Assembly (NCBI GenBank): GCA_022823725.1
Contig: JAJEHL010000022.1
Span: 15,881 to 79,880, forward strand
DNA length: 64,000 bases
Direction of reading: 5' to 3'
Source: Candidatus Latescibacterota bacterium
Lineage (GTDB): Bacteria > Latescibacterota > UBA2968
Positions 4,783 through 59,061 of the stretch are shown here, one piece after another. Under the pieces are notes generated by a model. The model was not told where the DNA came from, did no database searches, and saw nothing but the letters and a program-made list of their open reading frames with translations. The position numbers and the translations under genes were made by a program. The stretch's first letter is position 1. Every line of letters starts with the position of its first letter.

Positions 4783-4841
4783 CTGGATCGCGGCTAAGCA
4801 TGTCCCCGCATGATTTAAGCGGGGAACCATGCCGCGATGAC
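4783..4841. repeat. REP-like hairpin family, copy A (with inner stem-loop insert)
   Basis: CTGGATCGCGGC...GCCGCGATGAC enclosing TCCCCGC/GCGGGGA. Confidence 0.85.
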
Positions 4842-4916
4842 AGAGGGTGTAGCATCAGGTCGCTTTTTGATGCCGATCTCATTCGCTTAGAAATGACTAC
4901 TTAAGAGGATTGTTTA

Positions 4917-6263
4917 ATGCCCAATGTCGTATTCATCATGACCGACAACCAGGGCGCCTGGACCCTGGGCTGCTATGGCAATCCAGACATACAAACCCCC
5001 AACATCGACAGACTCGCAGATGAAGGGGTCCGGTTTTCCAACGCCTACTGCGTAAACTCGGTCTGCTCGCCCAGCCGCGCCACATTCATGACCGGACTGA
5101 TCCCCTCCCAACACGGCGTACACTGTTACCTCGGCGGAGAAAGACCAGATGCACAAATGGGACCAGACGCGTACTGCACCATTCGCGAATTTGCAAACCT
5201 CCCCCGCGTAATGGCAGATGCGGGCCATGTATGCGGACTGAGCGGAAAATGGCATCTGGGAGACAGCATGCGGCCCCAGGAGGGATTCTCATACTGGTTT
5301 ACCCGCCCAAAGGGACACACCACCACATTTTACGACGATGAATGGATCTGGCGAGAACAGGTTTACACCGAACCGCGATACACAACCGAAGCCATAACAG
5401 AACACGCCCTGAAATTTCTGCGGCAAAACCACCACCAGCCGTTCTTTCTCTACGTAGCGTACAACGGACCCTACGGCCTGGGCCAGAGCATGCTGGAAAC
5501 ACATGTCAACCGGCACACCGAATACTACGCGGACAAAGAACTGCCGAGTTTTCCCAGAGAACCGGTACATCCGTGGCTACGCAGCAATCGGGACATGATC
5601 AACAACCCGGTGAGCATTCGAGGATATGCCGCAGCGGTGAGTGGGGTAGATGATGGGGTAGGCGAAATAACAAACGCCATAAAAGAATACGGCCTGGAAG
5701 AAGACACCCTGATAATATTCACAGCAGATCAGGGCTGGTGCGGTGGACATCACGGAATGTGGGGCATGGGAGACCACTCCCGGCCCCTTCATACTTATGA
5801 AGAAACCATCCACATTCCCCTGATATTCCGCCAGCCCGGGCGGATACCGGCAGACAGGGTCTTTGAAGGTAGAACATGCAACTACGACTTCTTCCCATCC
5901 GTACTGAACTACCTGGGATTACAGGATCGGATCGCCGACAACCCCAATCTCCCGGGCACGAGTTATGCCCCAGCACTTATGGGAAAAGAAATGGCGTGGC
6001 ATAATGAAATATACCACGAATTTGAAAACGCGCGCATGGTGCGAAATGACCGCTGGAAATACACCTGGCGTCACCCTGATGGCCCGGATGAACTATACGA
6101 TATGCAGGCAGACCCGGAAGAACGCAACAACCTGGCGAACCGCTCCCACACAAACGTCATCAACGAATGTCGCAACCGCATCCAGAACTTCTTTAACCAG
6201 TACGCAGACCCTCAGTACGACCTGTGGCGCGGGGGACGCTCCAAAGCGGGACGAATCGGATAA
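4917..6263 (+). CDS. Sulfatase (Cys-type)
   Basis: PNVVFIMTDNQ, CSPSR, GKWHLG, FTADQG. Confidence 0.95.
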   Translation: MPNVVFIMTDNQGAWTLGCYGNPDIQTPNIDRLADEGVRFSNAYCVNSVCSPSRATFMTGLIPSQHGVHCYLGGERPDAQMGPDAYCTIREFANLPRVMADAGHVCGLSGKWHLGDSMRPQEGFSYWFTRPKGHTTTFYDDEWIWREQVYTEPRYTTEAITEHALKFLRQNHHQPFFLYVAYNGPYGLGQSMLETHVNRHTEYYADKELPSFPREPVHPWLRSNRDMINNPVSIRGYAAAVSGVDDGVGEITNAIKEYGLEEDTLIIFTADQGWCGGHHGMWGMGDHSRPLHTYEETIHIPLIFRQPGRIPADRVFEGRTCNYDFFPSVLNYLGLQDRIADNPNLPGTSYAPALMGKEMAWHNEIYHEFENARMVRNDRWKYTWRHPDGPDELYDMQADPEERNNLANRSHTNVINECRNRIQNFFNQYADPQYDLWRGGRSKAGRIG

Positions 6264-6273
6264 CAGTACCTCC

Positions 6274-7443
6274 CTACTCCTCCCAAATCAGTGCCAGCGC
6301 GCCCGTATAACTATGTACAAAATTGCGCCCGCCCACAGGTGCCAACTCCGAGTTGCCAAAAAAGCCAGCCATTGGAAAAGCGCCCAGGTGTTTTCGAATC
6401 ACCAGAACATCGTGATCGGGCTGGCCATAAAGCCCAAATCCGCGTCCCATACAGTTAAAATACAAACCACATGTATTGGACGGGCGCCCGACAGATTCCC
6501 GCAACTCCTGCATCACCTTCACCATATCTTCATGTCCCGCATGGGGTGTGCGCCTATTAAATTGAATGGTCTGTCCCACAGACACCTGTTCATTAACTGC
6601 AATCGCGCCCGACTGCTCGTCGATATGTGTCAAACTGCGAATTAAAAAATCGCCTCGCCCCCGTTCAATTGCGTATTCATCCATCGCCAGACCCACAAAA
6701 ATATTGTAGCGCAAATCGGCCTTTTCCTCTGCCGAAAGCGTATTGAGCGCCTCCTTCAGCGCATCCACAGCCGGAACAAATGCGATCTGCTGAATCACAT
6801 TGTCCTCGGCTCTGGTAATCGCATAAGCCTGTCCAAACGGTTGGCAACCTTGTGCCACCCCCGTAGCCACCTTTACTCCGGACAACAACGCCCCCACCAC
6901 GCCGTGTTCACCAATCCACTGTCCACACCATTGCAATGTCTGCGGCGACGCTGATCCCCACGGATTGCCCGACGCAACGCCCCCCACAACGGGCACATCG
7001 CCAGCCATCTCGGCAATCTGTTCCAGACAAATCGCCGGATTGGAATAAATCCCACACATAAGCACCAGCAACGCATCCTCTGTGCCCTGGGCTGCCACGC
7101 GCTCGCCAATCACAACCCCGGCATCGGCACCCTCTGCCACAAGAGGTGTCACCTCGAGATGATCTCCGCCCAAAACCAGCACCGCCACCCCAGGCTCGCG
7201 ATCATTTTCTCGGGCATCTGTCAAAACCCCCATGCCACTACATCCAAACACAGCCTCTGTCTGCACCCGATCGATAACAACATCCACCATAGCAGCCGCA
7301 TCGCCCATGTGGTGATAGGTCAAAAAAAGAAACGCAGCATCAACCGCAACATCGCCCAGCCCCTTCATGGCTTCTGACAAAGCGGCCTCAACAGCGTACA
7401 TGCCTTCGGCTTCATTTGAATGTCCAGCCCCGGATCGCAGCAT
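6274..7443 (-). CDS. FIST (FIST_N + FIST_C) signal-transduction domain protein
   Basis: GGVASG, QGCQPFG, YFNCMGRG and GFFGNSE motifs. Start moved to ATG 7443 (MLRSGAGHS) behind GGGGAAG. Confidence 0.85.
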   Translation of the reverse strand: MLRSGAGHSNEAEGMYAVEAALSEAMKGLGDVAVDAAFLFLTYHHMGDAAAMVDVVIDRVQTEAVFGCSGMGVLTDARENDREPGVAVLVLGGDHLEVTPLVAEGADAGVVIGERVAAQGTEDALLVLMCGIYSNPAICLEQIAEMAGDVPVVGGVASGNPWGSASPQTLQWCGQWIGEHGVVGALLSGVKVATGVAQGCQPFGQAYAITRAEDNVIQQIAFVPAVDALKEALNTLSAEEKADLRYNIFVGLAMDEYAIERGRGDFLIRSLTHIDEQSGAIAVNEQVSVGQTIQFNRRTPHAGHEDMVKVMQELRESVGRPSNTCGLYFNCMGRGFGLYGQPDHDVLVIRKHLGAFPMAGFFGNSELAPVGGRNFVHSYTGALALIWEE

Positions 7444-7674
7444 ATCTTCCCCACGGCAAAAACGACTTCTAAAAATATTGTTATGCAATATAGAGGCAAA
7501 AAATCGCAGATCAAACAATTTCCGAACTGACCTTTTTGAACAGATGTATTGGATTTGCCTCTCATGCTATATTATTAGAACAATACTTGCGACACACATG
7601 TAAATACCTTATATTAAATTGCTCTAAAATTATACCTCCAAATCCCTCTAAAATCACCCCAAAGAGCCTTCCCA

Positions 7675-8142
7675 ATGGATCTGAATTACAGTCTCCACAA
7701 CGACACAGTAAAACACGTTGATCTCTCCTTTTACGTCGAAGTACAAAAAGACAATCCCGTTGATCAGGTCATCGCCAAAATGCAGAATAGTCAGCGCAAA
7801 TGCGCGCTGGTCATGGACCAGGGCAAACTAATCGGCATCTTTACAGCACACGATATTGCCCGCCGCGTAATCGACCAATCCGAAGTAATCAACGAGCCTA
7901 TAGAAGCGATCATGACCCCCGATCCGCTCACCCTGAAATCGGATATCACACTCATCGAAGCCATCCGATTTATGAGCGACAAACCCCACCGATACATGCC
8001 CGTTGTAGATGCAGAAGGGCGCGTATTGGGCACACTGACACACTATGCCATCATCAAATACATGAGCGATCATTTCCCAGAAGAAATCTACAACTTACCG
8101 CCAACCCCCGACCACTTTGCCAGCGCTCGGGATGGTGCCTAA
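7675..8142 (+). CDS. Stand-alone CBS-pair (Bateman) protein
   Basis: Two CBS repeats (LIGIFTAHDI; IMTPDP...MPVVD...GTLT). Confidence 0.85.
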   Translation: MDLNYSLHNDTVKHVDLSFYVEVQKDNPVDQVIAKMQNSQRKCALVMDQGKLIGIFTAHDIARRVIDQSEVINEPIEAIMTPDPLTLKSDITLIEAIRFMSDKPHRYMPVVDAEGRVLGTLTHYAIIKYMSDHFPEEIYNLPPTPDHFASARDGA

Positions 8143-8160
8143 AATACTTCAGGAGGATTT

Positions 8161-10050
8161 ATGGCCGAAATAGACATCGAAGAAACGGCCGAATCGACAC
8201 TTTTCGAACTGTCCGAAATCGAATCCATTGCCATTCGCTTTGCGGGTGATTCCGGTGATGGCAGTCAGCTCATAGGCAAAGAATTTGCCAACACCTCGGC
8301 AATAGTCGGCAATGACATCAGCACCCTTCCGGACTTTCCCGCTGAAATCCGCGCGCCCGCTGGCACATTGCCCGGTGTTAGCGGGTTTCAAATCCACATA
8401 TCCAGCGAAGACATATACACGCCCGGGGATGAGCCTCAAGTCCTCGTAGCGATGAACCCGGCAGCACTCAAAGCCAATGTCAACGACCTTCCAGACGGCG
8501 GCATCATCATTGCCAATACAGACAACTTCACGCGCAATAATCTGCGCAAAGCCGGATACGACAGCGATCCCCTCGAAGGCAATGGCCTCTCCAATTATCG
8601 CGTGGTCAAAGTACCCCTCACCACGCTGCACAAAGAAGCGGTCGCACACGTTGAGGGCCTGACCAATCGCCAGATTGACATGATGAAAAACTTCTTCGCA
8701 CTGGGCCTGTCCTACTGGATCTTCGACCGCCCGATAGAGCCGACCATTCGCATGCTCGAAAAGAAATTTCAGGGCAAAGACGAAATCATCGACGGCAATG
8801 TGAGCACCCTGAAAGCCGGCTACAACTTTGGTGAAACAGTCGAAGAATTTCAGATTCAGTACCAGGTCAAGAAAGCCGTCGTCGCACCGGGCACTTATCG
8901 CGCTGTCACGGGCACACAAGCCACGGCAATAGGCATGGTCACCGCAGCTCACAAAGCGGGCAAAACCCTCTTTTACGGCAGCTATCCCATCACGCCAGCC
9001 AGCGCAGTACTCGAAGAATTGGCCGCATTGAAAAATTTTGACGTGCGAACCTTTCAAGCAGAAGATGAAATTTCCGCACTGGGGGCGGTCATCGGCGCTG
9101 CTTTTGGGGGTGCGTTTGCCGCCACAGGCACCAGTGGTCCCGGCATCGCACTAAAAAGCGAAGCCATGAACCTCGCCCTGATGATGGAATTGCCCCTCGT
9201 TATCTGCAACTTTCAGCGCGGCGGTCCCAGCACCGGCATGCCCACCAAAACAGAACAATCTGATCTGCTCCAATGCATGTTTGGTCGCAATGGTGACAGC
9301 CCCATCCCCATTGTCTCACCGGCCACGCCATCAGACTGCTTTGACATGGTCATCGAAGCGTTCCGCATCGCCGTAGAAACCATGAGTCCGGTCATTTTCC
9401 TCTCCGATGGATACCTCAACACCAGCGCTGAACCGTGGAAAATTCCCGATCCGGATGATATTCCGACCATTTCAGTCGAACACAGAACCGATCCCGAGGG
9501 CTTCTTGCCCTATCTGCGAGACCCAAAAACGCTATCTCGCCCCTGGGTATTGCCGGGCACGCCGGGCCTTGAACACAGACTGGGTGGACTGGGCAAAGAA
9601 GACGGCACGGGCAATGTATCCTACGACCCGGATGACAACCAGCACATGGCGAACATACGCGCCGAACGTTTGGCGCGCATCGCCGACCGTATTCCACTCC
9701 AGCACGTCATGGGGCCCAAATCGGGCGATCTGCTCGTCCTGGGCTGGGGATGTACTTATGGTGCGATCCGCTCGGCAGTGCGCCGAATGCGACAGCAAGG
9801 CTATTCGGTTGCCGCAGCACATCTGCGCTATCTCAACCCATTCCCCAAAAATCTGGGCGCGATACTATCGAGTTACAAAACCATACTCGTGCCCGAACTC
9901 AACATGGGACAATTGTCTTTGCTGCTCCAGGCCAAATATCCCACACAGGTCATCGCCCCCTTCAATAAAGTTCAGGGATTGCCCTTCAAAATTTCAGAAC
10001 TCGCCGACAAAATCGCCGAAATACTGGGTGCTCCAAAGAACGCATCATGA
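8161..10050 (+). CDS. korA: 2-oxoacid:ferredoxin oxidoreductase alpha subunit (gamma-alpha fused; likely 2-oxoglutarate type)
   Basis: FAGDSGDGSQ, SYPITPAS, QAEDEI, TSGPG, QRGGPSTG motifs. Confidence 0.93.
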   Translation: MAEIDIEETAESTLFELSEIESIAIRFAGDSGDGSQLIGKEFANTSAIVGNDISTLPDFPAEIRAPAGTLPGVSGFQIHISSEDIYTPGDEPQVLVAMNPAALKANVNDLPDGGIIIANTDNFTRNNLRKAGYDSDPLEGNGLSNYRVVKVPLTTLHKEAVAHVEGLTNRQIDMMKNFFALGLSYWIFDRPIEPTIRMLEKKFQGKDEIIDGNVSTLKAGYNFGETVEEFQIQYQVKKAVVAPGTYRAVTGTQATAIGMVTAAHKAGKTLFYGSYPITPASAVLEELAALKNFDVRTFQAEDEISALGAVIGAAFGGAFAATGTSGPGIALKSEAMNLALMMELPLVICNFQRGGPSTGMPTKTEQSDLLQCMFGRNGDSPIPIVSPATPSDCFDMVIEAFRIAVETMSPVIFLSDGYLNTSAEPWKIPDPDDIPTISVEHRTDPEGFLPYLRDPKTLSRPWVLPGTPGLEHRLGGLGKEDGTGNVSYDPDDNQHMANIRAERLARIADRIPLQHVMGPKSGDLLVLGWGCTYGAIRSAVRRMRQQGYSVAAAHLRYLNPFPKNLGAILSSYKTILVPELNMGQLSLLLQAKYPTQVIAPFNKVQGLPFKISELADKIAEILGAPKNAS

Positions 10051-10065
10051 TAGAGGAATCCAAAC

Positions 10066-11607
10066 ATGGCAGACGCTATTGAAACACTGACGCGAAAAGA
10101 CTTCGTATCCGACCAGGAAGTGCGCTGGTGCCCCGGTTGTGGCGATTACGCCATCCTCGCACAGATGCAACGCGTATTGCCCGAAATGGGCATTGCGAGA
10201 GAAGAAATGGTCTTTATATCGGGCATTGGTTGTTCCAGCCGTTTCCCCTATTACATGAACACGTACGGTCTGCACACCATTCACGGTCGTGCGGCAACCG
10301 TGGCGACTGGCCTCAAAGTAGCCAATCCCGACCTGCACGTGTGGGTAATCACCGGCGATGGCGACAGCCTATCCATAGGCGGCAATCACCTGTTGCATGT
10401 GCTGCGTCGCAACGTCAATCTCAACATCATACTCTTCAACAATGCGATCTACGGTCTCACCAAAGGACAATATTCACCCACATCGCCGCCGGGTACGCGC
10501 ACCTATTCGTCGCCCATGGGCTCCGTGGAACAGGACTTCAATGCCATAAGCGTTGCCCTGGCAGCCGAAGCCACCTTTGTCGCCCGCAGTGTTGACCGCA
10601 ATACCAAGCACATGGCCGAGATCCTCAAACGCGCCACCGAACATCGCGGCACGTCCTTTGTCGAAATCTACCAGAACTGCAATATCTACAACGACGGTGC
10701 CTGGTCTTTTGCTACCGAGGCGAATGTCAAAGACGATCAGACCGTGATCCTCGAACACGGCCAACCCATCATCTTTGGCAAAGATCGCGACAAAGGCATC
10801 CGTATCAACGGGCTTGCGCCCGAAGTCGTAACCCTGGGCAATGGCGTATCGGAAAGCGACCTGCTCGCACACGACGAAACCCTGGACAATCCAGCCCATG
10901 CGTATTTGCTCAGCCGCCTCACACATCCGGACTATCCGGTGCCACTCGGCGTATTTCGCTGTGTAGAACGCCCAATTTACGAAGAGCAAATCATCGCACA
11001 GGGCCGCCAGGCAGTTGAAGACCGCGGCGCAGGCGATCTCAATGCACTGTATCACGCGACAGACACCTGGATTGTTCCGGAAGGTCCCGATGCCGAAACC
11101 GTGCAAGAGGTCCACGAAGAATTGCCCACATCGAATATCATTCCCGATATCGAACAAGAAGACCCCATGGCACCGCGCACCGCGCTTCAGCAACTGCTCT
11201 ACGATCCGATCTCATCGCTCGACCTGCCAGTACCTGAATGCGTATCCGCCGATACTTCGGTAGCCGATGCCGTTGAGACCATGCGCAGCAAAAATCTGGG
11301 CTGCTTACTGGTCGTTAACAAACGGGGCTTATTGCGCGGCATATTCGCGCAGGGCGATCTCTTTGAAAAAGTTGCCGGGCGCGATATAGACCTGACAAAA
11401 ATAACGATCGATAGCCTGATGACCAAAGACCCCACCGCATTGAAAACATCTGATCCCATCGGTCATCTCCTGCACCTGATGTCTCTGCACGGCTTCCGCC
11501 ACATACCCATTGTAGATCCCGATGAGCGTCCCGTGGGCCTGGCATCCTTCAAAGTCATGCTCAAGTTCACCGGCGGACTCTTCTCAGACGACATATCACC
11601 GAACTAA
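10066..11607 (+). CDS. korB: 2-oxoacid:ferredoxin oxidoreductase beta subunit fused to a C-terminal CBS pair
   Basis: WCPGCGD, SGIGCSS, GDGD...NN TPP motif, YGLTKGQ; then an acidic linker and two CBS repeats (GIFAQGDL; LMTKDP...HIPIVD). Confidence 0.92.
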   Translation: MADAIETLTRKDFVSDQEVRWCPGCGDYAILAQMQRVLPEMGIAREEMVFISGIGCSSRFPYYMNTYGLHTIHGRAATVATGLKVANPDLHVWVITGDGDSLSIGGNHLLHVLRRNVNLNIILFNNAIYGLTKGQYSPTSPPGTRTYSSPMGSVEQDFNAISVALAAEATFVARSVDRNTKHMAEILKRATEHRGTSFVEIYQNCNIYNDGAWSFATEANVKDDQTVILEHGQPIIFGKDRDKGIRINGLAPEVVTLGNGVSESDLLAHDETLDNPAHAYLLSRLTHPDYPVPLGVFRCVERPIYEEQIIAQGRQAVEDRGAGDLNALYHATDTWIVPEGPDAETVQEVHEELPTSNIIPDIEQEDPMAPRTALQQLLYDPISSLDLPVPECVSADTSVADAVETMRSKNLGCLLVVNKRGLLRGIFAQGDLFEKVAGRDIDLTKITIDSLMTKDPTALKTSDPIGHLLHLMSLHGFRHIPIVDPDERPVGLASFKVMLKFTGGLFSDDISPN

Positions 11608-11629
11608 CGCGCGTCAACATCACAGCGCG

Positions 11630-11667: not shown

Positions 11668-11678
11668 ATGGAGGAAAA

Positions 11679-13676: not shown

Positions 13677-13716
13677 TTCATCTGCGTTCATCTGCGTTCA
13701 TCTGCGTTCATCTGCG
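13677..13716. repeat. Tandem repeat (TTCATCTGCG)x4
   Basis: Four exact 10-nt units overlapping the 3' end of the M14 peptidase gene. Confidence 0.95.
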
Positions 13717-16312: not shown

Positions 16313-16329
16313 AGATAATCTCCTTGAAT

Positions 16330-16425
16330 GAATAGACGAACCCCGCCCTACCACCCAAAACCTCTGGATTGCGGCTTACACCCTGCCGCAATGACGGCTT
16401 TCATGTACATTACCTGCTTCATTGA
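16330..16425. repeat. REP-like family, long copy B
   Basis: GAATAGACGAACCCCGCC...CAAAACCTCTGGATTGCGGC...GCCGCAATGACGGCTTTCA.GTACATTACCTGCTTCATTGA, near-identical to copies D, G and H. Confidence 0.9.
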
Positions 16426-16427
16426 TA

Positions 16428-16487
16428 AACTGGCCCCACATTACCCACTTGTGGGGCAGGCTCTGAGAGACGGCCAGTTGTACACCG
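16428..16487. repeat. Second hairpin module AACTGG...CCAGTTGTACACCG with nested CCCCACA/TGTGGGG stem
   Basis: Same module without the insert at 59009-59040. Confidence 0.7.
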
Positions 16488-17451: not shown

Positions 17452-17565
17452 AGCCTGCCCCCCGTATAAAAACACTACGGGGCAGGCTCTGCATGGTTTT
17501 GAGCAGGGGGCAAAACCTTCTGGATCGCGGCTAACAGCATGCCGCGATGACGGCTTTTATGTACT
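17452..17565. repeat. REP-like family, composite copy C
   Basis: AGCCTGCCCC...GGGGCAGGCT hairpin followed by CTGGATCGCGGC...GCCGCGATGAC (17520-17551). Confidence 0.85.
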
Positions 17566-17638: not shown

Positions 17639-17736
17639 TGGCGGGAATGTGTGGGAATCGAACCCACCAGGCGTGGGGTTAGCACGCGACAACGGGTTTG
17701 AAGCCCGCGGGGGACACCAGTTCCCCATCCACTCCC
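17639..17736 (-). tRNA. selC: tRNA-Sec (anticodon UCA)
   Basis: Minus strand GGGAGTGGATGGGGAACTGGTGTCCCCCGCGGGC-TTCAAA-CCCGT...GGTTCGATTCCC...ATTCCCGCCA: 98 nt, long variable arm, encoded CCA, directly after selD. Confidence 0.97.
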
Positions 17737-17738
17737 AA

Positions 17739-18782
17739 TCACGCTCGTACCTCAATCTCACCGGGATGTTCTGCAACCACCTCGCCAATATCTCGAGCCA
17801 TCACACCGCGATCGTCTAACGCCTCAAGAAAAGCATTAGCCGCATCGGACGCAAGAGCAATTAACAGACCACCAGAAGTCTGCGGATCAAAAAACAAACG
17901 CCTCAAAGCCTCGTCAACATCATCGGCAAACCTCACCGCATGCCCTCGCGCCTCCCGATTGCGCCGCAAACCACCGCCCTCGCGCCCCTCTGCAATCTGC
18001 AAAGCCAGATCAAAACACGGCACATTAGAAGCGCGAATCCGAAACCCAACGCCACTCGCCTGCGCCATCTCCAACCCATGCCCGATCAACCCAAACCCCG
18101 TAATATCCGTACACCCGTCCGCATTGAATGCAACCATCTCCTCGGCTGCAATGCGATTCAACTGCACCATAGAATCCACGGCAATCTGCAAAGCATCTTC
18201 ATCGATCTCGCCATTTTGATAGGCATCCGACAACAAACCCGTACCCAGCGGCTTGGTCAAAATGAGACGATTACCCACCCGAGCACCTGCATTGGTCTTC
18301 ACATCATCTGGATGCACAACCCCCGTAACAGACAAACCGTACTTGGGTTCCACATCCTCCACAGAATGCCCACCGACCAGAACCGCACCGGACTCCGTCA
18401 CCTTCTCCTGTGCCCCTTTTAAAACCTCGGCAATCACCTCTGGCTCGACATCATCACTCGGAAACCCGCAAATATTCAGCGCAGTAATCGGACGCCCCCC
18501 CATCGCATACACATCGCTCAGCGAATTTGCTGCCGCAATCTGCCCATACGCATGCGGATCATCGACAATAGGCGTAAAAAAATCCACCGTCTGAATAAGA
18601 GCCACATCCTCAGAAATCCGAAACACGCCAGCATCATCAGCCGTATTCATCCCCACCATCAAATCGGGATGCGCCACACGCGGCAAATTTTTCAAAATCA
18701 CATCCAGCACCGCTGGATCGAGTTTCGATGCTCAACCACCGCAACTGACGAGCTGAGTCAATCTTTTAGCGCGATACTTCAT
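17739..18782 (-). CDS. selD: Selenide, water dikinase (selenophosphate synthetase), Sec-containing
   Basis: True start ATG 18782: MKYRAKRLTQLVSCGG-U(TGA 18734-18732)-ASKLDP, then DDAGV, TVDFFTP, GGHS, DITGFGL, DPQTSGGLL. Confidence 0.95.
18702..18718 (-). promoter_or_regulatory. Bacterial SECIS hairpin of selD
   Basis: ATCCAGC-GGT-GCTGGAT starting 13 nt after the UGA. Confidence 0.8.
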
Positions 18783-24882: not shown

Positions 24883-24894
24883 CTGCAAAAGCGC

Positions 24895-24990
24895 GAATAG
24901 ACGAACCCCGCCCAACCACCCAAAACCTCTGGATTGCGGCTTAAAGCCTGCCGCAATGACGGCTTTCAGGTACATTACCTGCTTCATTGA
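24895..24990. repeat. REP-like family, long copy D
   Basis: Matches B, G and H; followed by GTTGATTC units. Confidence 0.9.
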
Positions 24991-25023
24991 TTCGTTGATT
25001 CACTGATTCCTTAAGGAGACCTC

Positions 25024-29373: not shown

Positions 29374-29479
29374 TGCAGCCTCCTGAATGACATCGCTAAA
29401 ACAGCGGCATCCGAAAGAGGTTGTTTGTTCTCAATATCGCGTGTATTTTTGCAATCTACAACATGGATAGCAAAACAAA

Positions 29480-29539
29480 CTGGATCGCGGCTCAAGCATG
29501 TCCCTGCATGGTTTAAGCAGGGAATCATGCCGCGATGAC
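29480..29539. repeat. REP-like family, copy E (with inner stem-loop insert)
   Basis: CTGGATCGCGGC...TCCCTGC/GCAGGGA...GCCGCGATGAC. Confidence 0.85.
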
Positions 29540-30085: not shown

Positions 30086-30130
30086 GTAGTGATCGCTCAA
30101 TGTCATACCGTGATGACAACCAAAAACCTT

Positions 30131-30188
30131 CTGGATTGCGGCTCAAGCATGCCTGCCCCTGTATGATTTAAGCAGGGGCCGCAATGAC
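30131..30188. repeat. REP-like family, copy F (with inner insert)
   Basis: CTGGATTGCGGC...GCCCCTG/CAGGGGC...CGCAATGAC. Confidence 0.8.
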
Positions 30189-36006: not shown

Positions 36007-37791
36007 ATGCCCGAAACACAACCGCGACCCGAACACCCCCGTCCGCAATTTCAGCGCACCACATGGCTAAACCTCAACGGCACCTATAACTTCGCCATTG
36101 ACACTGGACAATCCGGTGAAGCCAAAGACTGGCCCCAAAATCCCGCTGAATTAAACCGCGCCATCACCGTGCCTTTCTGCCCGGAATCCAGCCTCTCGGG
36201 CATACAACACACGGACTTCATGCCCTCGGTCTGGTATCACCGCACCCTCGACATCCCCGACGAATGGACGGACAAACGCGTACTCCTGCACTTCGGCGCG
36301 GTCGATTACCACTGCAAAGCCTGGGTCAATGGTCAGCTCATAGGGCAGCATTACGGCGGCAGTTCATCCTTCACTTATGACATCACAGACGCGCTCACGT
36401 CTAACGCAAACCACCTCGTCGTCTGCGCCAATGACGACACGCGCTCAGGCGACCAGCCATCGGGCAAACAATGCCCTGACCTCTACTCCCGCGGCTGCCA
36501 CTACACCCGCGTCACGGGAATATGGCAAACCGTCTGGCTCGAAGCCGTACCCGAGTCGCGCATCGAAACTGTGCGCATCGTACCCGACCTCGACAGCAGC
36601 CGCTTTGTACTCACTCCCACATTCAAAAACGCACACCGCGGACACATCTTTCGCGCCGTCCTCCTCAACGGCAAAGAAGAAGTCGCAGTCTCCACCATGC
36701 CCGCCACGAGCGGTACAGCCATGTCCCTGCGCATCAAAAACCCGCAACCCTGGTCGCCAGATAATCCCCACCTCTACGACCTCCGCTTTGAGCTCCGAGA
36801 CGGCGACACCACCATCGACGCCGTCAACAGCTATGCCGGACTGCGAAAATTTCACATCGAAGGCCACAAATTCTACCTCAACAACACCCCCATCTTCCTG
36901 CGCCTTGTACTGGACCAGGGATTCTATCCCAACGGAATATGGACTGCCCCATCCGACGACATGCTCAAAGCCGACATCGAAAAATCGCTCGCCGTCGGCT
37001 TCAACGGCGCGCGCCTCCACCAGAAAGTATTCGAAGAACGCTTTCACTACTGGGCGGACAAACTCGGCTATCTCACCTGGGGCGAATACTGCGATTGGGG
37101 CATGAACTTCGGCTCACCCCAATCCATACACAACCAGCAGCGCGAATGGCGCGAAATCGTCCAACGCGACCTCAACCACCCCTCTATCCTCGCGTGGACC
37201 CCATACAACGAAACCCGGGGCGGCGCGACCAACCACTTTGAAGCGCACCGTCGGGCCGTGCAGGAAACATACGACCTCACCAGAGCACTCGATCCCTCTC
37301 GCCCCTGCCACGACACCAGCGGCTACGTACATGTCTGCACGGACATCTACACCGTACACGACTACGAACAGGACCCCGTCAAATTCAAAGCAACTTACGC
37401 ACCCGTATCCCCCGACGACTGGGAAAACACACCCATCCGCTTCCCCGAACTGAGCGCGCCCTATCAGGGCCAACCCTACGTCGTCGATGAGTACGGCGGC
37501 ACATGGTGGGATCCCAATGCCGTCGAAACAGAACAAGCCGCAGACCGCAAAAGTAGCTGGGGCTATGGCAAACGCCCCACCGACATCGAAGAAGTGTATC
37601 ACCGCATCGAAAAACTCACAGCAATACTCCTCAACCACCCCAACATCGCGGGGTATTGCTACACCCAACTCACCGACATCGAACAAGAACAAAACGGCAT
37701 CTACACATACGACCGCCGGGAAAAATTCGACGCAAAACGCCTGAAAAAATACTTCGGCGCTCCGGCGGCTATTGAACGAATAGACGAATAG
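36007..37791 (+). CDS. Glycoside hydrolase family 2
   Basis: LHFGAVD, TGIWQTVWLE, LVLDQG, WTPYNE (acid/base), DEYGG (nucleophile). Start moved to 36007. Confidence 0.9.
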   Translation: MPETQPRPEHPRPQFQRTTWLNLNGTYNFAIDTGQSGEAKDWPQNPAELNRAITVPFCPESSLSGIQHTDFMPSVWYHRTLDIPDEWTDKRVLLHFGAVDYHCKAWVNGQLIGQHYGGSSSFTYDITDALTSNANHLVVCANDDTRSGDQPSGKQCPDLYSRGCHYTRVTGIWQTVWLEAVPESRIETVRIVPDLDSSRFVLTPTFKNAHRGHIFRAVLLNGKEEVAVSTMPATSGTAMSLRIKNPQPWSPDNPHLYDLRFELRDGDTTIDAVNSYAGLRKFHIEGHKFYLNNTPIFLRLVLDQGFYPNGIWTAPSDDMLKADIEKSLAVGFNGARLHQKVFEERFHYWADKLGYLTWGEYCDWGMNFGSPQSIHNQQREWREIVQRDLNHPSILAWTPYNETRGGATNHFEAHRRAVQETYDLTRALDPSRPCHDTSGYVHVCTDIYTVHDYEQDPVKFKATYAPVSPDDWENTPIRFPELSAPYQGQPYVVDEYGGTWWDPNAVETEQAADRKSSWGYGKRPTDIEEVYHRIEKLTAILLNHPNIAGYCYTQLTDIEQEQNGIYTYDRREKFDAKRLKKYFGAPAAIERIDE

Positions 37792-37913
37792 ACGAACCCC
37801 GCCCCACCACCCAAAACCTCTGGATTGCGGCTTAAAGCATGCCGCAATGACGATGGATAGGATTGATCGCTGATTTTTGACCACTGACCGTTGATTCGTT
37901 GATTCGTTGATTC
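37778..37913. repeat. REP-like family, long copy G, with (GAATAGAC)n and (GTTGATTC)x3 tandem units
   Basis: Matches B, D and H; (GTTGATTC)x3 at 37890-37913. Confidence 0.9.
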
Positions 37914-37933
37914 GCGCTTTTACAGGAGACCCC

Positions 37934-49096: not shown

Positions 49097-49114
49097 AACG
49101 CTCTCCTTGATATG

Positions 49115-49140
49115 AGGGGCGAGGCATGCCTCGCCCCTAC
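49115..49140 (-). repeat. GTAG-type REP palindrome (single copy in the window)
   Basis: Minus strand GTAG-GGGCGAGGCATGCCTCGCCC-CT, a perfect palindrome. Confidence 0.6.
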
Positions 49141-52987: not shown

Positions 52988-53007
52988 AAATAAAGGGGAA
53001 ATCTAGA

Positions 53008-53200: not shown

Positions 53201-54163
53201 GCATTCGGCACATGTCTGGCTGGTATATTTGGGGTCAACAGGTTCTATGTGGATACCAACACGTTTGGCCTTGTATTCGATAAAGGTGCGAAGTTGGAAG
53301 AAAGACCACCCAGACATCTTTGCACGCTGAGGCTTGCGAAACCGTTTCTGGCTCTTGCGTATGCCTTCGAGGTCTTCAAGAGCAATCGCTTTGCCAGTGT
53401 CTTTGGCCTTCTCAACGATGCGTTTAGAGAAGATATGGTTGGTGTTTCTACGAAACCTGCTCTCCCGGCCAGAGATGGCAGAGAGTTTTCTGCGAACATT
53501 CTTGGGTCTCTTGCCTTGCTTGACAAGGGCAGACGCTTTCTGTTGGAGCAACTTTTTCAGATCGTGCATCTTCTGGCGGACGTTTTCAACTGTGTCGCCG
53601 GAAAAAGTCTCGCCATCATCGGTGACAGCGATGTTCGTCACGCCGAGATCAACGCCGATAAAATCAGTAGCAGGTATTGGCGTACCATCAGGAACATCTA
53701 CAGAGACAAGCAAGAACCACTTGCCGTCTTTGCGGAGCACAAGGTCTGCTTGTCCTTTGGCATAGCCGAACTGCTCACGCTGGTAATTGCCCATAAGCAT
53801 CGGCACAAGCACGCGCCCTTCCAACGTGAGCAGAGATACCTGGTCTATGCCCTTGAAGCTATACAGGCGTTGATCGTAAGGCATACCAGCATGGCGACGA
53901 AACGACGGTTGCACCGCTTTGTCGCGCTTATACGCCTCTACAACCTGGGCAATACAGCGACACGCCATCTGGGACGAAAGGCTAAATCGCTCGCGCAACT
54001 CGTAGTAATATAGCTTGTGTAACGCAATGCCGTTTGCCAGCTTGCGCTCATAAGCCTTCGGTGCAAGCCAATTGGCAGCTTCGTTGAACCGCTCAACAGT
54101 CGCTTTTAACCTCTGTGCTGTGTCCGTATCCGGTAGCAGTTGTGTTTGTAAAGTAAGTATCAT
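53072..54163 (-). CDS. tnpB: RNA-guided endonuclease TnpB, 363 aa
   Basis: RuvC-I IGVDLG, RuvC-II ALEDL, Zn finger TSQTC..CG...C..CG, RuvC-III HADRNAARNI. Start moved to ATG 54163. Confidence 0.95.
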   Translation of the reverse strand: MILTLQTQLLPDTDTAQRLKATVERFNEAANWLAPKAYERKLANGIALHKLYYYELRERFSLSSQMACRCIAQVVEAYKRDKAVQPSFRRHAGMPYDQRLYSFKGIDQVSLLTLEGRVLVPMLMGNYQREQFGYAKGQADLVLRKDGKWFLLVSVDVPDGTPIPATDFIGVDLGVTNIAVTDDGETFSGDTVENVRQKMHDLKKLLQQKASALVKQGKRPKNVRRKLSAISGRESRFRRNTNHIFSKRIVEKAKDTGKAIALEDLEGIRKSQKRFRKPQRAKMSGWSFFQLRTFIEYKAKRVGIHIEPVDPKYTSQTCAECGHCEKDNRPTQASFQCKVCGHKDHADRNAARNIRARALCQQA

Positions 54164-54170
54164 ATTGATA

Positions 54171-54198
54171 ACTATAATCAGTATGAAATGTTTGTCAA
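54171..54198 (-). promoter_or_regulatory. sigma70 promoter of tnpB inside the left end
   Basis: TTGACA-16 nt-TATAGT. Confidence 0.65.
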
Positions 54199-54265
54199 CA
54201 TCCACTTTTACGGCAAAGCCCAGTTTCTCTGACCACGCCCAAAGGACGTGGGTTCCGCAGGTAAA

Positions 54266-54928
54266 ATGAAAAAAAAGGGAGATGTCCGGCTCCATGTGGA
54301 TCATATCGTGCGCGCTGGCCACGCTTTCCGAAGAACGCCCCAAGGAGGTATCGTCTTACAGGAGAAACTGTGGGAGGCCCTCTCGCAATTTGTGGGTCCA
54401 AATGTGCCAAAGGGCCCGTTGGTTGACCCCGGCAAAGAATACTTCAAGGTCAACAGAAAGACGCGACGCTTTGAGAAACTTGAGCTGAAAGACGGCATGC
54501 ATCCATTCAGCATGGATATGCCAGTCGGCATCATGAGAGGCGATACCATCACACTGGTTTGCACGGGAGAACCAGGAACCACCTATCGCGTAGAACTCAG
54601 CCCGGTAGAAGGCCTTGATGCACCCGGTTTCGAAACAAAGGGAGAGATTGCGGCAGACACAAGTATGAGAGGCGTGAGTCTTATAGAAGTGCCACTGGAT
54701 CAGCCCCTTGGCAGATACCGATATCGCCTGTGGATCAAGAAACCAGGCCAGGAAGAAGTGGAATTGGACAAGAGCCATACCGTATCAGGCGGAGGAGCCT
54801 TTATGGAAATATGGGATGAGAAATCGGCAGACAACATCGTGAGCGGCGACCACGTCTGGCGTAAACTCTATCTACCGCTCTTGCCAAAAAAGCTCGGGCC
54901 TGTAGGCTGGGGATTCTCTGAATATTAG
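54266..54928 (+). CDS. Hypothetical protein, possibly a 5'-truncated gene remnant
   Basis: Coding-like ORF that begins immediately outside the IS left end. N-terminal VRLHVDHIVRAGHAF recalls the C-terminal His loop of alpha/beta hydrolases. Confidence 0.5.
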   Translation: MKKKGDVRLHVDHIVRAGHAFRRTPQGGIVLQEKLWEALSQFVGPNVPKGPLVDPGKEYFKVNRKTRRFEKLELKDGMHPFSMDMPVGIMRGDTITLVCTGEPGTTYRVELSPVEGLDAPGFETKGEIAADTSMRGVSLIEVPLDQPLGRYRYRLWIKKPGQEEVELDKSHTVSGGGAFMEIWDEKSADNIVSGDHVWRKLYLPLLPKKLGPVGWGFSEY

Positions 54929-54957
54929 CCTGGATCTTCAGTTAATAAGGAGGAACC

Positions 54958-56196
54958 ATGAACAAACAACGCCCAATCCTACTCTTAGTGATCCTCGCCC
55001 TGGTGGCGGCCGCACCCTTCTCGAATGCGCAAGCGCAACAGTTCTCCGAAGAAGAACTGTCTCGATTCCTCAGGCAACATCCCGGCGCGGATGCGGATGG
55101 CGATGGCAAGCTGACCGCAGAGGAGATCAAGGCCGCCCGCGCACGCAAGGAGCAAGCTGAGGCCGCAGCAGCGCAATGGAAGGGGAGATTTCACCCCGGC
55201 TGGGAGAAGGATGAATTCCCGCCGCACGCGGTAAGCTTTAAGACGCCTGATGAGATTATGGCAATTTATAAGCGCGGCCCTGCGGGTCGAAGTTATGTGG
55301 ATGCGAGCGACGCCCTTTCCTTTCCCAAGCCTGCCGACGGCATCATGCGCATCGTGGGCACGGGCCACAGCTTCACTGCGCCCGGCTACAGAACCTTACC
55401 CGCCATCACCCGTGCCGCCGGGTTCGAGCAGCCCTTTTGCCTGCATAACGGCGGCGGGGAAACGGGCAGCGTTCGCTACAAATGGGAGCAGGAAAATGGC
55501 ATCTTCCAATTCGACGGCAAGCCCCTGCCCAAACTGCTGTCTGCTATTTCCAACGCGGAATGGGAGGCGATGATCTGGGGACCCTACGTCGGTGATCGTC
55601 CGGAATTTTACACGTGCTGGATCGATTTCTGCGAACAATACAATCCCGGCATGAAGTTTTTTCTCATCGACGGCTGGCCCACGCTATCTCAGGTCCAGAG
55701 CGTCTTCAATCGGAAAGGAAACCCGGAGTCTGAAGCGTTCTTCACCGATGCGGTCTTCGATCAGCTCAACGCCCCTGTGAACACTGGCTTTGCGGCCTTC
55801 GTGAAAACGCTGCGCGAATCAACCGATGAAGTCTATATCTTGCCGACGCGCGCCGCCATGACGGAGGCGGCCAAACGCTTCATCCGAGGAGAGCTTCCCG
55901 GCGTAGAAGGCCTGTATAAGGTCATTGGCGGAAAAGAAAGTTCTATCTGGGCAGACCAACGCGGCCACTTGGGGCCCGGCTTCGACCGCCTGGAGGGCTA
56001 TGTCTTCTACGCCACGCTCTACGGCAAATCCCCCGAACTCATTTCAGCGCCTATCAAGTTCAATAGAAATCCGAGTTTCCTAAGCGCCGACCTTGACGAA
56101 ATTTTCCGCGAAATCGCCTGGAAAGCGGTGGTGGAGCATCCCCTCTCCGGCGTTACAGATAAAAATAAGAACGGCATTGGCGATCATCTTGAGTAG
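54958..56196 (+). CDS. Secreted protein with EF-hand and SGNH-like domain
   Basis: Signal peptide, DADGDGKLTAEE EF-hand loop, GTGHSF block I, DQRGHLG block V-like. Confidence 0.65.
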   Translation: MNKQRPILLLVILALVAAAPFSNAQAQQFSEEELSRFLRQHPGADADGDGKLTAEEIKAARARKEQAEAAAAQWKGRFHPGWEKDEFPPHAVSFKTPDEIMAIYKRGPAGRSYVDASDALSFPKPADGIMRIVGTGHSFTAPGYRTLPAITRAAGFEQPFCLHNGGGETGSVRYKWEQENGIFQFDGKPLPKLLSAISNAEWEAMIWGPYVGDRPEFYTCWIDFCEQYNPGMKFFLIDGWPTLSQVQSVFNRKGNPESEAFFTDAVFDQLNAPVNTGFAAFVKTLRESTDEVYILPTRAAMTEAAKRFIRGELPGVEGLYKVIGGKESSIWADQRGHLGPGFDRLEGYVFYATLYGKSPELISAPIKFNRNPSFLSADLDEIFREIAWKAVVEHPLSGVTDKNKNGIGDHLE

Positions 56197-56329
56197 CGGT
56201 CGAGCAGCGTATAACGGCGAATCTATTCGATCGGTTTATTCAGACGAATCTACAGTCGCATGGCGTGACACAAAATCAGATAGAGTGCAAACCCGGTCAG
56301 CCCCATCTACAGATTATATAAGGAATCGC

Positions 56330-57463
56330 ATGAAACCTGTCGTCGCGCACAGTGCCAACCCCTATTTACCAGCAACAGCCACCTGGATATACGACCAGAT
56401 TCGCGCATTAAAACGGTACCGCCCCATCGTCCTCACACAAATGCGCCAGAACCTGGATCGTTTTCCCACAGAAACCGTCTTATCAGCTGAAGATATATCG
56501 CCCATCCGCAGAACAACCCTGCGCCTCATTCGCAAAATGCGCGGCACGTACGCCGGCTATAAAAACTGGCTTTGCGAACACAACGCCGCCCTCATCCACG
56601 CGCATTTTGGGCAGGAGGGATACCGGTGCCTCTCCGCAAAACAACGAGCGGGCATCCCCTTGATCACCACCTTCTACGGCCTGGACGTATCGGCACTACC
56701 CCGGCAAAAAAAATGGCAAAAACGGTATAAACGCCTCTTTGCCGAAGGCGACTACTTCCTCGTCGAAGGCCCCTTCATGGGCGAACAACTCATCGCACTT
56801 GGATGCCCTGCCAACCGGGTAATCGTACAACACCTAAGCGTAGATCTCGAAAAAATCCCCTGCAGAACAGACCACACACCCGAACAACCCATCGTATTGA
56901 CATATAGCGTATTCCGAGAAAAAAAAGGCTTGAAATACGCAATCCGGGCTTATGCAAAAATAGCGGAAAAATATCCGGACGCCCAACTGCGCATGATAGG
57001 CGACGGACCTTTGCGCCCACAACTACAAGCTGAAATACGAAATCTACACCTCGAAAACCGCGTAAAAATGCTCGGCCTGCTCCCCCATCCTCTCGCACTG
57101 GAAGAACTAAAACGCGCAACAATCCTCCTCTATCCCAGCGTCACAGCATCAGATGGCGACACCGAAGGCGGTGCCCCCGTAGCCCTCATCGAAGCCATGG
57201 CAATGGGCGTCCCCATTGTATCGTCCCGACACGCCGACATCCCCGAAGTCGTAATCGACAAAACCTGCGGCCTATTATATCCCGAACGAGACATCGCGGG
57301 CCTCGCCGAAGGATTGGACACCCTCCTCAACTCCCCCGAACAATTTGGTCGCGCTGGCCGCGCTCACGTCGAAAAGCAGCACAACCTGGAAAAACAGGGT
57401 AAAAAATTAGAGGTGATTTACGATCGGGTTGTGATGAACAAGCCCCCAATGCATAATCCTTGA
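56330..57463 (+). CDS. Glycosyltransferase family 4 (WcaL-like)
   Basis: HAHFG, TTFYGLD, EKKGL, DGDTEGGAPVALIEAMA. Start moved to 56330. Confidence 0.9.
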   Translation: MKPVVAHSANPYLPATATWIYDQIRALKRYRPIVLTQMRQNLDRFPTETVLSAEDISPIRRTTLRLIRKMRGTYAGYKNWLCEHNAALIHAHFGQEGYRCLSAKQRAGIPLITTFYGLDVSALPRQKKWQKRYKRLFAEGDYFLVEGPFMGEQLIALGCPANRVIVQHLSVDLEKIPCRTDHTPEQPIVLTYSVFREKKGLKYAIRAYAKIAEKYPDAQLRMIGDGPLRPQLQAEIRNLHLENRVKMLGLLPHPLALEELKRATILLYPSVTASDGDTEGGAPVALIEAMAMGVPIVSSRHADIPEVVIDKTCGLLYPERDIAGLAEGLDTLLNSPEQFGRAGRAHVEKQHNLEKQGKKLEVIYDRVVMNKPPMHNP

Positions 57464-57528
57464 CATCCGCGACTATTAACACAATTTATTCAGTGCTCAT
57501 TCCTCGCGTACTTAAAATGGAGACAGAA

Positions 57529-58908
57529 ATGCCTGAACACCCCAACCTCGTATTTGTATTCCCCGACGAATATCGCAAACAAGCCATGGGATTCATGAAC
57601 GAAGACCCCGTAATAACCCCTAACATCGACCGATTTGCATCTGAAAGCCTGGTATTAACCGACGCCGTAAGCACCAGACCTGTATGCAGCCCCTATCGGG
57701 CAATGCTCTTCACCGGACAATATCCCCACGCCAATGGCGTACTCAGCAACGTCAACTCCACCACAGTACAATACGAAAACTACCTCCGGGAAAACGCACG
57801 GTGCTTCTCTGACGTCTTACACGACGCTGGCTACAACCAGGCGTATCTGGGCAAACTACACCTCGATCCCCCTAATGAACAATATCAATACACCGAAGGA
57901 CCGAGAGGAAATGGCGTCATCTGGGACTCATATACCCCGCCGGGACCGCGCAGACACGGCTATGACTTCTGGTATTCCTACGGCTGTTGCGACTGGCACT
58001 TCGACCCCCATTACTGGACTGGCAATGACCCCATAGACAAACGCATCGACCCGAAGGAATGGTCTCCCAAACACGAAACCGACATCGCAATAAACTACAT
58101 CCGCAACGAAGGTGGAAAATACAGAGATCCCAAAAAACCATTCTCACTCGTCATATCCCACAACCCGCCGCACATGCCATTCAAACAAGTACCGGAAAAA
58201 TACGTCGCCCAATACGGCGATGCCACCCATGAAGACCTCTTGACGCGCCCCAACGTACCCACAGACACAAGCGGCGACAGCGCCCGCGAAAATGTAAAAC
58301 ACTACTTCGCCATGGTAACCGGCGTCAATGAAAACTTCGGACGCATACTGGACTGTCTGAAAACAGAGGGCATGGAAGAAAACACCATCGTCGTCTTCAC
58401 CTCTGACCACGGCGAAATGATGGGCAGCCATGGCCGCATCGGCAAAACCGTACACTACGAAGAATCCTTCACCGTGCCATTCATCATCCGCTGGCCCGGA
58501 AAAATCACACCCGGCACAGATGACCTGTTAATCGGCACACCCGACTTGATGCCCACACTGCTCAACCTCATGGGCGTGGGACAGGTCCCCGACAGCGTCC
58601 AGGGAATGGATTACTCCGATATCCTCCTGGGTAAAAAAGGCACGCGCCCAGCATCTGCACTCTACCTCAACGTAATGCCCGACAACCCCGCTGGCGGATC
58701 GCGTGGCGTGCGCACACACCGACACACGTATGTGGTCACGCAAACAGGCGAAGACGAAGAAACAATCCTCCACGACAACATCGCGGACCCCTACCAGCTA
58801 CAAAACATCGCTGGCGATCATCCCGGCCTTGAAGCAGAACTTGAGGAAGAAATGAACAACTGGTTGAAAAAAACCGGCGACCCATGGTTGACGCGAATAG
58901 ACGAATAG
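57529..58908 (+). CDS. Sulfatase (Cys-type)
   Basis: PNLVFVFPDEYR, CSPYR, GKLHLD, SDHGEMMGSHG. Confidence 0.95.
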   Translation: MPEHPNLVFVFPDEYRKQAMGFMNEDPVITPNIDRFASESLVLTDAVSTRPVCSPYRAMLFTGQYPHANGVLSNVNSTTVQYENYLRENARCFSDVLHDAGYNQAYLGKLHLDPPNEQYQYTEGPRGNGVIWDSYTPPGPRRHGYDFWYSYGCCDWHFDPHYWTGNDPIDKRIDPKEWSPKHETDIAINYIRNEGGKYRDPKKPFSLVISHNPPHMPFKQVPEKYVAQYGDATHEDLLTRPNVPTDTSGDSARENVKHYFAMVTGVNENFGRILDCLKTEGMEENTIVVFTSDHGEMMGSHGRIGKTVHYEESFTVPFIIRWPGKITPGTDDLLIGTPDLMPTLLNLMGVGQVPDSVQGMDYSDILLGKKGTRPASALYLNVMPDNPAGGSRGVRTHRHTYVVTQTGEDEETILHDNIADPYQLQNIAGDHPGLEAELEEEMNNWLKKTGDPWLTRIDE

Positions 58909-58998
58909 ACGACCCCCGCCCCACCACCCAAAACCTCTGGATTGCGGCTAAAACCCTGCCGCAATGACGGCTTTCAGGTACATTACCTGTTTCATTGA
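58895..58998. repeat. REP-like family, long copy H
   Basis: Matches B, D and G; followed by the AACTGG...CCAGTTGTACACCG module (59009-59040). Confidence 0.9.
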
Positions 58999-59061
58999 TT
59001 CGTAGATGAACTGGTCTGAGAAGCGACCAGTTGTACACCGTTCCGCTGAAAGGAGCAATAA

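Follow-up and report, generated by a model that had tools for sequence, protein, structure and literature searches.

The 64,000-nt stretch of DNA analyzed here (the window; contig JAJEHL010000022.1) raises the question of why eight copies of a short intergenic hairpin should all lie on one strand, even where the surrounding genes are read from the other. The hairpin is of the repetitive extragenic palindromic (REP) type. How repeats of this type spread is still debated, and in most bacteria they occur as inverted pairs, which mask any strand preference. For the class with a CGTC tag, we know of no mobilizing enzyme since the class was defined. In the lineage studied here, copies of two REP classes stand singly, and among those clearly placed about 94% point one way relative to replication. 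We conclude that the eight hairpins genuinely belong to a REP-type intergenic repeat family of sponge-associated Latescibacterota. We further propose, with a probability of roughly 60%, that this is a family of CGTC architecture that is spread or kept through single-stranded DNA (ssDNA) at the replication fork, the agent most probably being a Y1/HUH enzyme acting in trans.

Eight hairpins in one orientation

The exact 12-mer CTGGATYGCGGC occurs at positions 4783, 16364, 17520, 24929, 29480, 30131, 37820 and 58937 of the window (copies A to H, in this order), in all eight cases on the + strand. With up to one mismatch allowed, 9 matches were found compared with 1.16 expected, and none of 100 shuffles reached 9; the ninth match, at 2917, differs at one position and lies within a gene. 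Every copy is followed, after 9 or 35–37 nt, by GCCGCRATGAC. The resulting stem is 8 bp long (ATYGCGGC/GCCGCRAT), and both strands fold as predicted. A single one of the eight stem pairs varies in the window, being C-G in copies A, C and E and T-A in the other five, and the remaining seven are invariant. The loop measures 9 nt in five copies, and 35–37 nt, with an inner hairpin, in copies A, E and F. A sequence-only hidden Markov model (HMM) identified no extra copies in the window.

Copies B, D, G and H share a 112-nt cassette with 71–93% identity (repeat family D1), and two of these are followed by a second module (AACTGG..CCAGTTGTACACCG; module 2), in one case with a nested hairpin. All eight are located in intergenic DNA: five have + strand genes on both sides, which encode sulfatases, an enolase-superfamily protein, short-chain dehydrogenases and a GH2 glycosidase, and one is in a divergent spacer. 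Copies B and C are placed in a minus-strand block that comprises an open reading frame (ORF) whose substitutions show a wobble-position pattern, together with the genes for an inositol monophosphatase, tRNA-Sec and selD. The preliminary description of the window had reported the eight same-oriented cores, their + orientation even amid minus-strand genes, the optional inner hairpins, a cassette of about 100 nt in four copies and the second module after two of them, and each of these observations was confirmed.

Parts of the window are 91–97% identical to Latescibacterota loci retrieved in the scan described below, and the window sequence is present in sponge metagenomes. Thus, the window derives from a sponge-associated Latescibacterota bacterium.

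Orientation follows the replication strand

The strand asymmetry of the window is extreme and uniform, with a GC skew between -0.09 and -0.29 in every 8-kb segment. Measured on the + strand, the third-codon-position skew amounts to -0.47 for + genes and -0.38 for - genes. Since the two values are alike, the asymmetry is a property of the strand rather than of transcription.

Public genomes were scanned with the complete hairpin pattern, which yielded at least 114 loci of 8 kb (numbered with the prefix L), 98 of them from Latescibacterota metagenome-assembled genomes (MAGs), including several complete chromosomes. All counts from the scan given below are among the matches listed. The matches outside Latescibacterota are mostly due to chance and have unrelated loops. 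The Latescibacterota sources, 99 in all (the 98 loci and the window), hold at least 133 copies. We refer to copies outside IS982-type miniature inverted-repeat transposable elements (MITEs) as free, and to an absolute local skew of at least 0.1 as clear.

As written, 108 of the 123 free copies belong to the C-rich strand; where the skew is clear, this holds for 85 of 90 (about 94%). With one copy counted per locus, 70 of 80 are on the C-rich strand (p = 3e-12). The orientation flips with the sign of the skew in OX638317.1 (at about 4.75 Mb), OX638329.1 (about 0.3–0.5 Mb), OZ253501.1 (about 0.1–0.3 Mb), OZ244847.1 and CBDDPH010000002.1. All nine polymorphic, and hence young, copies that could be scored obey the polarity. 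The roughly ten copies within IS982-type MITEs are unbiased (6:4), which fits passive carriage, and several further exceptions have near-zero skew or are members of one distinct cassette.

In 103 listed copies, the flanking genes, taken relative to the element, run (+,+) 37 times and (-,-) 33 times, with 17 divergent and 16 convergent pairs. The similarity of 37 to 33 and of 17 to 16 shows that orientation is independent of transcription and that promoter regions are not avoided. Leading strands are G-rich as a universal rule, and the G-rich strand here bears the rpsF-rpsR-rplI operon and five of six tRNA genes. Thus, the G-rich strand corresponds to the leading-strand sequence, which is the template of the lagging strand. 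The copies are oriented by chromosome arm and not by genes, with the head-first form on the G-rich strand. On five chromosomes (OX638317.1, OZ253501.1, OX638329.1, OZ244847.1 and OZ242320.1), 47 of the 52 listed loci are no further than 20% of the chromosome length from the switch from negative to positive skew, compared with 40% expected, suggesting that copies are enriched near the origin.

The common orientation had been attributed in the preliminary description to a bias of the replication strand, with reversal at the origin or terminus as a point to check, rather than to selection as transcript signals. The data from relatives support this: the strand bias is strong, the flips fall at skew switches in complete chromosomes, and gene direction has no influence.

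About two thirds of the coding DNA of the window is on the C-rich, presumably lagging, strand, and crude ORFs across the 99 sources are divided into 326 on the C-rich and 295 on the G-rich strand, that is, there is no leading-strand gene bias.

Architecture of the unit

The G-rich strand gives the unit as YGTC-AT-YGCGGC-loop-GCCGCR-AT-CCAG-AAGGTTTT, where AAGGTTTT is the usual 3' extension. Of the 133 copies, 71 have C before GTCAT, 61 have T and one has G. The CCAG tail after the stem was part of the search pattern, yet it is also kept in the hits of the sequence-only HMM. In the orientation of the window, AAAACCTT stands 5' of most copies. The loop was scored in all 142 pattern matches listed: 99 have 9 nt, 20 have 10 nt and about 19 have 21–38 nt, the last with a nested hairpin. 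Close pairs (at most 300 nt apart) have the same orientation in nine cases and opposite orientations in none, so that all are head-to-tail.

The variable stem pair is Watson-Crick (C-G or T-A) in 130 of 133 copies (Fisher p = 2e-32). Both alleles occur together in most sampled genomes, and the commonest loops are found with either. Two clonal subfamilies were considered as the sole cause of the covariation and rejected, because identical loops are associated with both alleles and the alleles coexist. The stem is nearly invariant across genomes whose flanks differ by 5–30%. The earlier statement that the stem covaries is therefore correct for one pair, which keeps its pairing, and overstated for the other seven. 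Such lack of variation is typical of a recently copied or homogenized DNA repeat rather than an old structured RNA.

Outside the phylum, a Dehalococcoidia MAG (OY821663.2, GC 64%; L062, L066 and L092) shares both frame and stem, CTGGATTGCGGC...GCCGCAATGAC, with a conserved loop of 28–29 nt (TGAAGTYTACCCTGAGCGCAGCCGAATGG). A MAG labelled as a delta proteobacterium (L005 and L055) contains two matches with typical 9-nt loops.

Comparison with known repeat systems

The frame CGTCAT...ATCCAG is also that of the dRS3 repeat of Neisseria. This repeat and the Rickettsia repeats RPE-4 and RPE-6 are examples of the families CGTC-1 to CGTC-4, which make up the CGTC-tagged REPs (Di Nocera, De Gregorio & Rocco 2013, BMC Genomics 14:522, PMC3733652). 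According to the same source, these REPs have a terminal CGTC, often TGTC (CCTC is allowed), a stem of 8–9 bp that almost always starts with two A-T pairs, a CCA tail and a loop of 4–5 nt. They are predominantly found as head-to-head dimers, and in some genomes they coexist with GTAG REPs and form mosaic clusters (PMC3733652). The Latescibacterota family has the YGTC head, the 8-bp stem with A-T pairs first and the unpaired CCA tail. It is likewise high-copy and intergenic, takes part in mosaic clusters, coexists with GTAG REPs and has no transposase gene attached. However, the loop is 9–10 nt, or 28–38 nt when nested, rather than 4–5 nt, the copies are singletons or head-to-tail arrays (9:0) rather than head-to-head dimers, and the AAGGTTTT extension is conserved. 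Furthermore, Latescibacterota is not among the five phyla listed in PMC3733652, and the strict replication-strand polarity seen here has no counterpart in that paper, which never mentions leading or lagging strands. By its sequence features, the family has the architecture of CGTC-tagged REPs with its own loop length and dimer habit.

GTAG REPs and REPINs are reportedly linked to RAYT in REPtrons in work by Nunvar from 2010 and Ton-Hoang from 2012. The same association with RAYT (TnpA_REP) is described by Bertels & Rainey (2011, PMC3116915) and by Quentin et al. (2018, PMC6006769). The hairpin of the window resembles these REPs in being short, GC-rich, tagged, intergenic and amplified, and genomes of relatives with the YGTC hairpin carry a single-copy conserved RAYT together with GTAG REPs of equal polarity. 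It differs from them in its head, which is YGTC and not GTAG, in the lack of inverted doublets and in not being located at the flanks of RAYT.

A third comparison is with IS200/IS605 elements (IS608 and ISDra2) and their non-autonomous derivatives, for which an orientation bias is tied to the lagging-strand template (PMC6006769, PMC3971601). The same bias was found for the hairpin, which also shares the hairpin-defined ends, probably the ssDNA chemistry, and a short motif on one side only, AAAACCTT here as compared to TTAC or TTGAT there. In contrast to these elements, the Latescibacterota unit is one symmetric hairpin with neither distinct left and right ends nor an internal transposase. Finally, the bacterial interspersed mosaic elements of E. 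coli and the Neisseria intergenic mosaic elements are similar in that their intergenic spacers combine small modules, nest them in one another and reshuffle them, but the module set of the Latescibacterota differs and all of its modules are polar relative to replication.

A mosaic of nested modules that come and go

The hairpin is one module in a mosaic of small nesting repeats that fills the intergenic spacers, and spacers are gained, lost and swapped among close relatives. The other modules in the flanks are the GTAG REP (GTAG-GGGACGG-loop-CCGTCCC), CCCTGC-ATGNTTTAA-GCAGGG, CCCCGTA..TACGGGG, GTCAC-stem-GTCCAG and module 2, in addition to runs of 7–10-nt tandem units, which are often inverted between the two sides of the hairpin. 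Inner hairpins inside the loop adjoin a CATG present on both sides. At some loci a GTAG REP is inserted inside the YGTC hairpin, splitting it in two (L115–L117 at about 6844–6865 and 1397–1564, L009 at 6582–6601, L064 at 186–206 and L073 at 3885–3906). In these cases the 5' half (AAAACCTTCTGGATCGC) abuts the GTAG-type REP, whose CCCCTAC end is in turn followed by the 3' half (..CATGCCGCGATGAC), with the same polarity. Among the loci listed, 46 GTAG REPs are on the G-rich strand as compared to 2 on the other. The window contains one clear GTAG-type REP (GTAGGGGCGAGGCATGCCTCGCCCC, 49116–49140, minus strand) versus eight CGTC-type hairpins, and it is on the G-rich strand, as the polarity predicts.

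Presence and absence were observed at several orthologous sites. The whole spacer of about 130 nt around copy G is absent from L045 and L030, where the spacers measure 16–27 nt. For copy D, a sponge-run contig of a related strain has 7 nt in place of 128 nt (joint 24882->25011), and a cassette identical to that of copy D is found in JAJEAX010000222.1 (L108). At one site the window is empty and two relatives carry the element, with a short loop in one and a nested loop in the other. Module 2 after copy B is missing from OX638317.1 (L017), cassette indels were also observed at L030 and L079, and three samples have other sequence at the site of copy E. A clean 47-nt addition of the hairpin only distinguishes L080 from L025, and the empty site in L025 already reads AAAAAACC. 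L057 has two tandem copies versus one in L084, and the L057 copy that shares the 5' flank of L084 has the other stem allele.

Amplification is also evident. L033 (3506–3822, OX638329.1) contains five head-to-tail copies with a period of 71 nt. A CRISPR array was rejected as an explanation, since the spacers are of two alternating, near-identical types, as in a tandem amplification. In sponge metagenomes, the summed contig depth at the core of the cassette of copy D is about 100–130 times that of its flanks, suggesting, as a rough figure, a hundred or so related copies per community genome equivalent. Contigs from RNA runs stop at the repeat. In L108 (7480–7640) the spacer of copy E holds a long tandem array of the 10-nt unit GCAGATAAAG, and a related unit, TTCATCTGCG, is repeated four times in tandem at 13677–13716 of the window.

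The RAYT gene of the lineage

A Y1/HUH protein is encoded at 4260–4841 of L008 (OZ253501.1, at about 340 kb, just past the origin-like skew switch). It was detected by phmmer with a RAYT from Cyclobacteriaceae as the query, matches PF01797 (E = 1.5e-10) and displays the RAYT motifs YFVT, MPNHVH and YIRDNP as well as H-V-H-G-I. Its closest homologs, named RayT by one source, are 173–219 amino acids long. The gene order is syntenic in three other assemblies (L115–L117), namely H+-PPase, rpsF, rpsR, rplI, FGE (the formylglycine-generating enzyme family), RAYT and BFN/UVR, which indicates vertical inheritance of a conserved RAYT gene. The region around it (3750–5510 in L008, corresponding to about 339.7–341.5 kb of OZ253501.1, and 3100–5400 in L115–L117) has 6–10 tandem GTAG REPs ahead of the gene, which itself carries in-frame GTAG-GGGACGG REP copies that are translated as GPCAVPK repeats.

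With an HMM built from 120 homologs, no further Y1 genes were identified in the window or in loci totalling about 900 kb. The distant homologs P0023, P0029 and P0069 belong to other organisms with no skew and a GC content of 58–61%, and at their loci only GTAG REPs were found, the YGTC hairpin being absent. IS110-type recombinases target REPs elsewhere; no genes of this type were identified in the sampled loci (about 0.9 Mb).

The preliminary description had ascribed the hairpins to mobilization by an HUH (RAYT-like) transposase and expected a RAYT or TnpA (Y1) gene flanked by them. A RAYT does exist in related Latescibacterota. However, its flanks and interior carry GTAG-GGGACGG REPs instead of the hairpin, and neither the window nor the other sampled loci contain one, so that the expected arrangement was not observed. 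Taken as a whole, the earlier interpretation is partly supported: the replication-strand idea holds in the relatives, and the connection to RAYT is no more than plausible.

How the family may spread

We propose that the family would spread or persist through ssDNA exposed on the lagging-strand template, by analogy with IS200/IS605 elements. The agent would most probably be a Y1/HUH enzyme acting in trans, either the single conserved RAYT of the lineage or another enzyme, and recognition or survival of the hairpin itself may be what keeps the two stem alleles in step. The idea fits the mirror-image tandem arrays of REPs on either side of the origin in P. fluorescens SBW25 (Bertels & Rainey 2011, PMC3116915). 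More specifically, CGTC-tagged REPs, a widespread repeat class, might be inserted strand-specifically into the lagging-strand template, beside an AAAACC-type motif and into the loops of other hairpins, by a GTAG-type RAYT in trans or an undiscovered ssDNA enzyme, and accumulate mainly close to the origin. We put this detailed version forward tentatively and consider it possible rather than probable. If it is true, Latescibacterota would be a natural system in which the insertion step can be read from genomes, because singletons are combined with an extreme strand asymmetry.

The polarity gives evidence, taken directly from genomes, for a coupling of spread or survival to one of the replication strands. 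It also provides concrete substrates, both strands of the 44-nt unit, and a candidate enzyme, the syntenic RAYT. The repeats have practical consequences in addition: they break short-read assemblies of symbionts, and they take the place of entire spacers between genes, even of the DNA immediately before start codons.

Several observations weigh against a Y1/HUH enzyme and a replication-fork route. CGTC-tagged REPs seem to have no transposase of their own (PMC3733652). The RAYT that was found is bracketed by GTAG REPs and not by the YGTC hairpin, which is absent within 4 kb in L115–L118 and approaches to about 1 kb in L008 only, and the YGTC head is unlike the GTAG of RAYT-linked REPs. In the likely source sample, a conserved neighbor gene of RAYT is present at the depth of the organism, and the DNA upstream of it has no match of at least 80% identity to the L008 RAYT. 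Origin and terminus were placed by the skew sign of 8-kb samples, not by dnaA or dif, and no dnaA signature motifs were identified in the sampled loci. The sample of public genomes consists of only the loci listed, at least 114 in number. Most cases of presence and absence are replacements of whole spacers without clean junctions or target duplications, and many of them could be due to recombination or deletion. The insertion rules can therefore not be read from the indels.

The explanation that competes best is that the polarity results from selection, the hairpins being polar or positional chromosome signals used by the host, for example by a protein acting on one replication strand or as a mark of the origin-proximal domain, with wrong orientations being purged. 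The clustering of 47 of 52 listed loci near the skew switch is as expected for such signals, as is a stem that hardly changes while the flanks diverge, and two unrelated REP classes with equal polarity point in the same direction. However, the copies are dispensable at orthologous sites, their loops vary freely, and the elements nest and form local tandem arrays like selfish repeats. The hairpin is symmetric, so that only its short flanks could hold the polarity, and the origin-proximal clustering rests on the loci listed. To our knowledge, no protein that binds the hairpin has been described. Selection for a host signal is thus an unlikely source of the polarity.

A second explanation holds that the hairpins are passengers of larger units, such as cassettes of 112–145 nt, IS982-derived MITEs and tandem arrays, that are spread by recombination, gene conversion and slippage, with the polarity arising from local copying within a replichore. 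Most indels are indeed entire cassettes or spacers, four copies of the window have one cassette in common, about ten copies reside in MITEs, and both the 71-nt periodicity of the five copies in L033 and the 9:0 ratio of head-to-tail pairs speak for local copying. On the other hand, the addition in L080 relative to L025 comprises the hairpin alone, the hairpin is found in many unrelated flank contexts, and it is precisely the MITE-borne copies that are without polarity. Moreover, local copying cannot give mirror-image orientations on both arms in about ten genomes, which makes passenger transport a distinctly improbable cause of the polarity.

The weakest explanation, that the hairpins are transcript elements (terminators, stabilizers of mRNA 3' ends or regulators in 5' untranslated regions) selected as RNA, is very hard to maintain: six of the eight window copies precede + strand genes, near the ribosome-binding site, and REPs are reported to stabilize mRNA in other bacteria (PMC3733652), but orientation is independent of gene direction in the 103 scored copies, there is no avoidance of divergent spacers, the stem is not followed by a T-run, only one pair covaries, an Rfam search of the window at the gathering threshold matched tRNA-Sec and not the hairpin, and the contigs from RNA runs break at the repeat, giving nothing on 3' ends.

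The individual copies and their surroundings

Copy A (4775–4841, + strand) consists of the 5' flank AAAACCTT and the hairpin with the C-G allele, and is placed between two + strand sulfatase genes. Its 36-nt loop contains the inner hairpin TCCCCGC-ATGATTTAA-GCGGGGA (4803–4825), and the DNA folds with -23.7 kcal/mol (z -6.9). Copy B (+ strand) is located between minus-strand ORFs and represents the 112-nt cassette (16329–16440), which is composed of a run of the octamer GAATAGAC, an A/C-rich spacer, the hairpin (16364–16395, T-A allele), a second small hairpin and a TTGATTCG-type run. The module 2 associated with it (16428–16487, + strand) holds a nested CCCCAC..GTGGGG hairpin. Copy C (17512–17551, + strand) comprises AAAACCTT and the hairpin with the C-G allele and a 9-nt loop. 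Two other hairpin modules are located upstream of it at 17460–17510, and it adjoins the minus-strand tRNA-Sec.

Copy D (24883–25010, + strand) is a whole cassette with the hairpin at 24929–24960 (T-A allele). Copy E (29472–29539, + strand; C-G allele) has its inner hairpin at 29501–29523 and lies in the divergent spacer between an FGE-sulfatase gene on the minus strand and a GNAT gene on the plus strand. Copy F (30123–30188, + strand) consists of AAAACCTT and the hairpin with the T-A allele and an inner hairpin; it is preceded by a remnant 3' half (..ACCGTGATGAC), and a short-chain dehydrogenase gene starts 24 nt downstream. The last two copies, G (37785–37921, hairpin at 37820–37851) and H (58902–59040, hairpin at 58937–58968), are cassettes on the + strand with the T-A allele. 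Copy H ends with module 2 (59009–59040) and is located between two sulfatase genes.

Two features of the gene content were observed in addition. On the minus strand at 17639–18710, the tRNA-Sec (68.5 bits in Rfam) adjoins a selD-like gene with an AIRS domain. The window also contains at least five sulfatase genes and the FGE-sulfatase gene, which is typical of sponge symbionts.

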